The notes under the pieces: model-generated
Told to the model about the DNA's origin: nothing
Database searches by the model: none
The model's input: only the letters and a program-made list of their open reading frames with translations
Part shown: positions 2,342 to 2,526 of the stretch, one piece after another
Position numbering within the stretch: position 1 is the first letter of the stretch
How the letters are laid out: each line of letters opens with the position of its first letter
DNA from: Escherichia coli
Lineage (GTDB): Bacteria > Pseudomonadota > Gammaproteobacteria > Enterobacterales > Enterobacteriaceae
Length of the DNA stretch: 64,000 bases
NCBI RefSeq assembly: GCF_022846255.1
Contig: NZ_AP025682.1
Reading direction: 5' to 3' (one strand)
Position numbers and translations under genes: made by a program

Positions 2342-2398
2342 ATCTTTGCTCCACTACAGGGTTATCCTGGAGCATGTTGTACATAACCTCATGGGCAA

Positions 2399-2407
2399 AG
2401 AATACCA
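2399..2407 (-). promoter_or_regulatory. possible extended -10 element (TGgTATTCT) upstream of the 481-aa ORF
   Basis: Minus-strand TGGTATTCT lies about 60 nt upstream of the ORF start; no convincing -35. Weak, pattern-based only. Confidence 0.2.
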
Positions 2408-2447
2408 AAAATCGCTCATATCGATCGGGACAAATATTTAACAAACT

Positions 2448-2493
2448 CAGCCCTGACATTGTGCAGATTTTTCGCTGCGTAGTGTCAGGGCTG
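2448..2493 (-). terminator. inverted repeat (11-bp arms CAGCCCTGACA/TGTCAGGGCTG, about 24-nt loop) just downstream of malZ stop
   Basis: Perfect 11-bp arms read directly from the sequence; about 35 nt 3' of the malZ stop. The loop is large and the downstream U-tract is poor, so terminator function is uncertain. Confidence 0.35.
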
Positions 2494-2526
2494 ATGACTA
2501 ACGACGTAACAAATAAAACAGATGCT

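Follow-up and report, generated by a model that had tools for sequence, protein, structure and literature searches.

What separates malZ from the gene that lies beyond it in about a fifth of Escherichia coli genomes, and how is that gene transcribed? The question is raised by a 64-kb stretch of E. coli DNA (contig NZ_AP025682.1 of assembly GCF_022846255.1), referred to below as the window. In it, the convergent genes acpH and malZ are parted by an orphan open reading frame (ORF), which carries the name Z0502 in the O157:H7 strain EDL933. The junction studied here is the 185-bp gap between the ATG of this ORF and the malZ stop codon (2342-2526). Coordinates of the features are collected in Table 1. 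A first-pass annotation of the junction had been made from the letters of the sequence, and its claims are taken up where the evidence bears on them.

Table 1. Features of the acpH-malZ region, in window coordinates
Feature	Position	Strand	Remarks
acpH	294-875	+	
acpH stop codon	873-875	+	TGA
Extra DNA	879-2526		about 1648 bp; no counterpart in K-12 or other Escherichia species
Orphan ORF	896-2341	-	481 aa; Z0502 in EDL933
Shine-Dalgarno sequence	2349-2352	-	GGAG, 7 nt before the ORF ATG; unchanged in 12 strains
Extended -10-like sequence	2399-2407	-	TGGTATTCT, reading 2407-2399; TGGTATTGT in EDL933-type strains
U-rich tail	2430-2446	-	GUUUGUUAAAUAUUUGU; follows the hairpin immediately in malZ-sense RNA
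Hairpin	2447-2494	-	outer arms 2447-2458/2483-2494, 12 bp perfect
Hairpin, inner parts			internal loop 2459-2462/2479-2482; inner stem 2463-2466/2475-2478; apical loop 2467-2474
Spacer, malZ stop to hairpin	2495-2526	-	32 nt; belongs to the inserted DNA
malZ stop codon	2527-2529	-	TAA on the minus strand; empty-site homology resumes here
malZ	2527-4344	-	proY and brnQ come next

Boundaries of the inserted DNA

In K-12 the stop codons of acpH and malZ are separated by four base pairs (AACG). A 4-bp stop-to-stop gap is also present in three other E. coli genomes and in the GTDB representative of E. coli and, outside the species, in E. albertii (GGTA) and in two other Escherichia lineages, where the four bases are GGCT and GGTA. 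Because the stop codons sit 4 bp apart in these empty sites, the DNA from about 879 to 2526 of the window is extra; its G+C content is 37.6%, compared with 54% in the flanks. The state of the outgroups speaks for a gain by insertion in E. coli and not for a deletion in K-12.

Where does the inserted DNA begin and end? The hairpin described below had been proposed as its right-hand boundary. Alignment with the K-12 intergenic sequence, which had been suggested as a check, puts the breakpoints at the stop codons, and they do not coincide with the hairpin. The right breakpoint falls within 2523-2526, where it abuts the malZ stop codon; the hairpin ends 29-32 nt short of it. The left breakpoint is ambiguous within 871-879, where homology to the empty site stops. 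The two stop codons, and not the hairpin, are therefore the boundaries of the insert. All insert-bearing copies of acpH end in CTC TGA, against TTA TAA in the empty-site strains. As this switch and the insert are completely linked, the left breakpoint may be within the final two codons of acpH. The differences at the acpH end (868-879) amount to three changes in six bases; the empty-site strains and the outgroups end the gene with TTA or TTG, followed by TAA.

The ends of the insert were compared with shuffled sequences. An inverted-repeat score of 9 (null 95th percentile, 10) and a direct-repeat score of 7 (null 95th percentile, 9) both lie inside the shuffle range, and neither terminal inverted repeats nor a target duplication were found. 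This agrees with the earlier observation that flanking direct repeats and terminal inverted repeats are missing and that no insertion mechanism is evident from repeats. The end of a transposable element or of a MITE was considered as a source of the inverted repeat at the junction and was rejected for lack of terminal inverted repeats or target-site duplication beyond chance. An integron attC site was rejected as well: there is a single GTTAAAT heptamer with no partner core, and the element lies 5' of the ORF, not 3'.

The hairpin and its tail

The 11-bp perfect inverted repeat that had been noticed after the malZ stop codon, at 2448-2493, was confirmed. Its arms, CAGCCCTGACA (2448-2458) and TGTCAGGGCTG (2483-2493), are perfectly complementary, and one further pair brings them to 12 bp. 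The description of the repeat as one with a large loop has to be revised, as the arms run on to 20 nt at 85% complementarity around a loop of 8 nt. The hairpin begins 32 nt past the malZ stop codon. In malZ-sense RNA of the window, a 4x4 internal loop is predicted to separate a 12-bp stem from a 4-bp stem that is closed by an 8-nt loop, with an energy of -27.4 kcal/mol (z = -5.5); the EDL933 hairpin comes to -31.4 kcal/mol (z = -6.3). RNA of the plus strand is predicted to form, in the window, an uninterrupted 20-bp stem of -34.3 kcal/mol, with G.U pairs in place of three mismatches.

A perfect inverted repeat of at least 11 bp with a loop of at most 40 nt was obtained in 6 of 5000 shuffles of the 185-nt region, and the 64-kb window contains six hairpins of that size, with 0.5 expected. 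Three of the other five are terminator-like or recognised operators. Elsewhere in the window, a perfect 21-bp inverted repeat (ATATACTATAGGGGGGTATGC...) is situated at 40457-40509, just upstream of an ORF; these we take to be the frmRAB promoter-operator palindrome and frmR. A palindrome at 53664-53698 (TGTGTGAAATTGT...ACAATTTCACACA) presumably represents the lac operator region, and the lac operon would then be in the window. For the junction hairpin, Rfam gave a single hit, mir-592, whose 24 bits fall short of the gathering score (67); it is matched as a generic hairpin, and no family reaches its threshold.

Is the hairpin a terminator? The tail that follows it starts with GUUUGUUA, where U is present at five of eight bases. 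On a TransTermHP-style scale, the tail scores -3.15 in the window and -2.48 in most strains, including EDL933, compared with -4.91 for the canonical terminator at 5902-5929. Of random AT-rich 15-mers, 11% do as well as -3.15 and 33% as well as -2.48. A rule-based terminator scan did not call the hairpin, probably because the internal loop breaks the stem that is counted. On the plus strand, a U-tract after the hairpin was not found. The combination of a strong stem with a marginal, interrupted U-tract suggests a leaky terminator at best.

Signals ahead of the orphan ORF

The extended -10-like sequence listed in Table 1 had been reported as lacking a clear -35, and this holds. It consists of TG with four of six hexamer matches, and no other good -10-like hexamer lies in the junction. 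Sigma-70 scores there peak at 6.4, below the median best score of shuffled sequence (8.8), and a consensus promoter scan gave no site. The promoter-like match is no better than chance. The idea that the gene has its own weak promoter at this sequence thus finds no support in the score, nor in EDL933, where no start site was mapped downstream of it, at the expected distance of about 7 nt, in eight conditions.

Several other signals were considered and set aside. A candidate sigma-54 promoter, TGGTATTCTTTGCC, has a GG-to-GC spacing that is short by 2 nt. A MalT box (ATGAGG) is a partial match and is missing from EDL933-type strains. A 5'-UTR stem that would sequester the Shine-Dalgarno sequence (CUUUGC/GCAAAG) has a z of only about -2 and is broken without compensation in CB6886-type strains. 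There is also an upstream ORF of 21 codons, MSDFWYSLPMRLCTTCSRITL (2353-2418, minus strand), which ends 11 nt ahead of the main ATG. It was rejected as a functional element, since a ribosome-binding site is lacking and some strains have lost the stop codon; in CB6886-type strains the stop reads TAT, which results in an in-frame fusion to the main ORF.

Published transcription data for EDL933

Strain EDL933 carries the insert, and its junction (486314-486500 of NZ_CP008957.1) is 95.7% identical to that of the window, although not the same. In Table S4 of Landstorfer et al. (2014; PMC4048457), malZ is listed as Z0501, the ORF as Z0502 and acpH as Z0503. RPKM values of Z0502 over 11 conditions are 8, 3, 1, 8, 5, 0, 1, 2, 4, 2 and 1, with a background of about 0.14; the values for malZ in the same conditions are 46, 17, 7, 70, 25, 0, 8, 11, 6, 10 and 1 (PMC4048457). 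These RPKMs, rounded and low, come from 11 single libraries; they give a Z0502/malZ ratio of 0.11-0.20 in eight of the ten informative conditions and a higher one in two, spinach juice and faeces (0.67 and 1.0). The Pearson correlation of Z0502 is 0.91 with malZ, 0.64 with acpH and 0.41 with proY. Read-through from malZ, which had been offered earlier as one way in which the gene could be transcribed, is supported by this pattern, in which Z0502 tracks malZ at 11-20% of its level in most conditions.

Are there transcription starts that could serve the ORF? Cappable-seq of EDL933 maps the malZ starts to 484466/484476 (Tables S4-S7; PMC10469882). The entries that follow in the master list are 485123 (-), 487331 (+, flagged as degradation) and 487650 (-); between 485123 and 487331, a range that includes the junction, no start site is present on either strand in eight conditions (PMC10469882). 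The ORF itself (gene 2335) has no gene-specific start site in these eight conditions (PMC10469882). An antisense start inside the orphan ORF, at 487650 (-), is active in six of the eight (PMC10469882). It corresponds to approximately position 1192 (+) of the window, and its transcript would head toward the junction hairpin; no convincing -10/-35 was found for it. Nothing was found under Z0502 or ECs0454 in the main texts of the literature, and the supplement of one further study identifies ECs0453 as malZ and gives nothing more on the ORF.

Distribution and conservation

The complete 2-kb region is present in 1126 of 5426 complete E. coli genomes. The 185-bp junction is found in the same 1126, in one copy each, always chromosomal and always beside the 481-aa ORF; it was not found in the phage collection. 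The plasmid collection gave two matches, both to 4.9-Mb records that look like mislabelled chromosomes. A plasmid or phage origin was rejected on these grounds. Within the 64-kb window the hairpin arm occurs at this site only, and with one site per genome and not many copies, the hairpin does not qualify as a dispersed repeat of the REP/BIME, ERIC or MITE type. When metagenomes were scanned for both arms, 29 loci proved to have this same E. coli arrangement and 21 to be unrelated hairpins. The latter were rejected as pointers to a donor, as they differ in loops, contexts and G+C content.

Across 12 diverse strains the junction is 98% identical, and the outer stem, the tail and the Shine-Dalgarno sequence are invariant. 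Most strains have an inner stem of 5 bp (GCAGC/GCTGC), the window one of 4 bp, and the A-run of the apical loop varies in length. The full plus-strand stem is not kept, as there is an A.G mismatch in most strains. No stem covariation was found among the 12 strains, since the stems do not vary, and the diversity of the junction (pi 0.024) is the same as that of the flanking genes. Because the stems are invariant and pi equals that of the flanks, conservation alone is no proof of selection on the structure.

Was the site between acpH and malZ occupied in other lineages? A conserved 200-aa gene, followed by a canonical terminator, lies between the two genes in eleven of the loci compared, which come from Salmonella, Leclercia, Kosakonia, an uncultured Enterobacter and others. 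We recognise its product from the sequence as presumably a 2-Cys peroxiredoxin (AhpC/TsaA-like). At most other loci, including those of most named Citrobacter and Enterobacter species, no malZ lies within 4 kb of acpH. These comparisons indicate that Escherichia lost the peroxiredoxin-like gene, leaving the 4-bp gap, and that the convergent acpH-malZ junction has a record of gene gain and loss. The possibility that the hairpin descends from the terminator of the peroxiredoxin gene was rejected, as that terminator has no similarity to the junction. One genome labelled E. coli (NZ_CP136396.1), in which malZ is replaced by an FRT-scar-like sequence (GAAGTTCCTATAC...), looks like an engineered Keio-type deletion strain and not like natural variation.

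The orphan gene

Searches of Pfam, PADLOC, NCBIfam and the PDB sequences gave no match to the 481-aa ORF, and PHROGs gave one marginal match, of unknown function. From 1.84 billion representative proteins, the search retrieved the cluster of the ORF itself, fragments thereof and one weak PKD-repeat-like match, and nothing else; none of these proteins is a full-length relative from outside E. coli/Shigella, and the full-length relatives among the matches listed are from E. coli, Shigella or unnamed Escherichia. The AlphaFold model has a pLDDT of 41, too poor for a fold search. The ORF is intact in all copies examined, with a mean dN/dS of 0.83 that rises to 1.06 in the C-terminal third. At 1420-1510 it contains a 12-nt tandem repeat in six to seven copies, which encodes a Lys/Glu/Ala-rich linker. 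The copy number of this repeat varies among strains and gives rise to proteins of 461-493 aa, in 4-aa steps. The ORF of strain THO-010 has a divergent mosaic middle segment. In strain WCHEC96200 (NZ_CP022229.3), the annotation shows an IS1 transposase and two fragments of hypothetical proteins in this region; a copy of IS1 thus appears to interrupt the orphan gene there.

Comparison with known systems

With intrinsic terminators of E. coli, e.g. the one at 5902-5929 in the brnQ-proY intergenic region, the junction shares a G+C-rich stem-loop soon after a stop codon, a U-rich run on the sense strand only and an RNA level that is lower beyond the element than before it. It differs in that the stem is a composite of 16-17 bp with a 4x4 internal loop, and not short and uninterrupted, and in that the U-tract is interrupted, with a score of -2.5 to -3.2 against -4.9. 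In addition, the hairpin appears leaky and is not native to the gene that precedes it. REP/BIME hairpins, which stabilise the 3' ends of upstream mRNAs, are similar in being stable 3'-UTR hairpins between convergent genes without a strong U-tract; unlike these, the hairpin here occupies one place per genome in 1126 genomes and has neither a REP consensus nor an Rfam match above threshold.

Acquired genes that are read through from a resident operon upstream form a general pattern with no defined family. Shared features are a single gene of low G+C content with a ribosome-binding site, no detectable promoter and RNA that follows the upstream resident gene, but the acquired fragment at this locus also supplies an attenuating hairpin. 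The mal regulon provides one more point of comparison, as it contains a 3'-UTR-derived small RNA, MalH, from the 3' end of malG. MalH-type RNAs likewise have a terminator-type hairpin that ends a MalT-controlled mRNA; here, however, the short interrupted U-tail makes a poor Hfq site, and the likeness is a lead only.

How the junction may have formed and how it may function

The interpretation we favour, with moderate confidence, is that of an imported, leaky terminator-like hairpin and an orphan gene expressed by read-through from malZ. A low-G+C fragment of approximately 1.65 kb would have entered exactly between the convergent stop codons, and the E. coli that had received it would be ancestral to about a fifth of those living now. 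The junction is the upstream non-coding end of this fragment, which brought along its own strong stem-loop, now 32 nt past malZ. For malZ, the stem-loop may act as a leaky intrinsic terminator, or at least as a hairpin that forms a 3' end, and roughly one malZ transcript in five to ten would continue into the orphan ORF. We infer that the drop in RNA is located at the hairpin and that it reflects termination, and not processing or decay. Because the ORF has no detectable promoter next to its good ribosome-binding site, its low expression would follow the MalT-dependent malZ promoter.

Could the hairpin protect RNA ends instead of forming them? It might be a 3'-end stabiliser or a processing stop similar to REP, and not a terminator. 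In that case malZ RNA would end further downstream, for example through Rho inside the poorly translated AT-rich ORF, and be trimmed back to the stem, and the low ORF RNA would be the result of decay. A strong stem accompanied by a U-tract that is near random fits this, as do a composite hairpin of 48 nt, longer than a typical intrinsic terminator, and the absence of a call in the rule-based scan. The hairpin is single-copy, however, unlike REP elements, and its tail keeps five U in the first eight bases, invariant across strains. We regard this alternative as unlikely, though it deserves to be weighed first.

Rather unlikely as well, by our estimate, is that the 105 bp from the hairpin to the ATG contain a promoter that is weak or active in certain conditions, at TGGTATTCT or dependent on an alternative sigma factor or an activator, with the hairpin insulating the gene from malZ. 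Extended -10 promoters can work without a -35, and TGnTATTCT is present with its A2 and T6 positions conserved. Horizontally acquired AT-rich genes are often silenced in laboratory conditions, and a promoter could have been missed for this reason; it could also explain the raised ORF/malZ ratio in spinach juice and faeces. The evidence set out above argues against such a promoter, as the junction has no start site in any of the eight Cappable-seq conditions in EDL933 and the best score stays under the shuffle median. The sigma-54-like TGG...TTGC is spaced 2 nt too short, and the MalT-box-like ATGAGG is lost in EDL933-type strains.

We hold it to be very improbable that the inverted repeat was left behind by the insertion machinery, be it as a transposon end, as a recombination site or as something like attC, or that it is an element of the opposite strand. 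The stability of the plus-strand fold, the antisense start at 487650 that aims at the hairpin and a GTTRRRY-like heptamer beside the stem could be cited for this view. Against a relic are the absence of a partner repeat at the other end of the insert, of a target duplication and of a second attC core, the single-copy state, the absence from phages and of a genuine plasmid copy, and the unrelated loops and contexts of the 21 metagenome hairpins with the same arms; against an opposite-strand element, the full plus-strand stem is not conserved and a U-tract is missing. Finally, the first-pass suggestion that the hairpin is the native malZ terminator at the edge of the insert, or its variant in which K-12 deleted the region, can be practically dismissed in spite of the correct orientation and position just downstream of malZ, since the hairpin is found only in the 1126 of 5426 genomes that bear the insert and in no empty site examined (E. 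coli, two Escherichia lineages and E. albertii), the Escherichia outgroups examined all share the 4-bp gap, with a spacer of its own in each, the hairpin sits 32 nt within the low-G+C extra DNA, and in other Enterobacteriaceae this place is taken by a peroxiredoxin gene, which is unrelated, and by another terminator.

What would an imported, leaky hairpin mean for E. coli? The junction holds no new kind of element: its hairpin is of the ordinary terminator type, and what is unusual is its history. A more far-reaching proposal, which we consider doubtful, is that the hairpin is a tuned attenuator, and not a passive leftover, that passes a fixed fraction of malZ transcripts and has put a protein found only in E. 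coli under the MalT/maltodextrin regulon. If true, a lineage-restricted gene would have been wired into a resident regulon by an imported leaky terminator. On the same proposal, malZ might also give rise, from the hairpin region, to a 3'-UTR RNA that is strain-specific. The favoured interpretation, of read-through past an imported hairpin, offers an account of the expression of Z0502, a gene present in a fifth of E. coli, including O157:H7: it would be low and would come from a maltodextrin-induced promoter. It also suggests ways by which expression of Z0502 may be raised, namely induction with maltose or maltodextrin and deletion of the hairpin.
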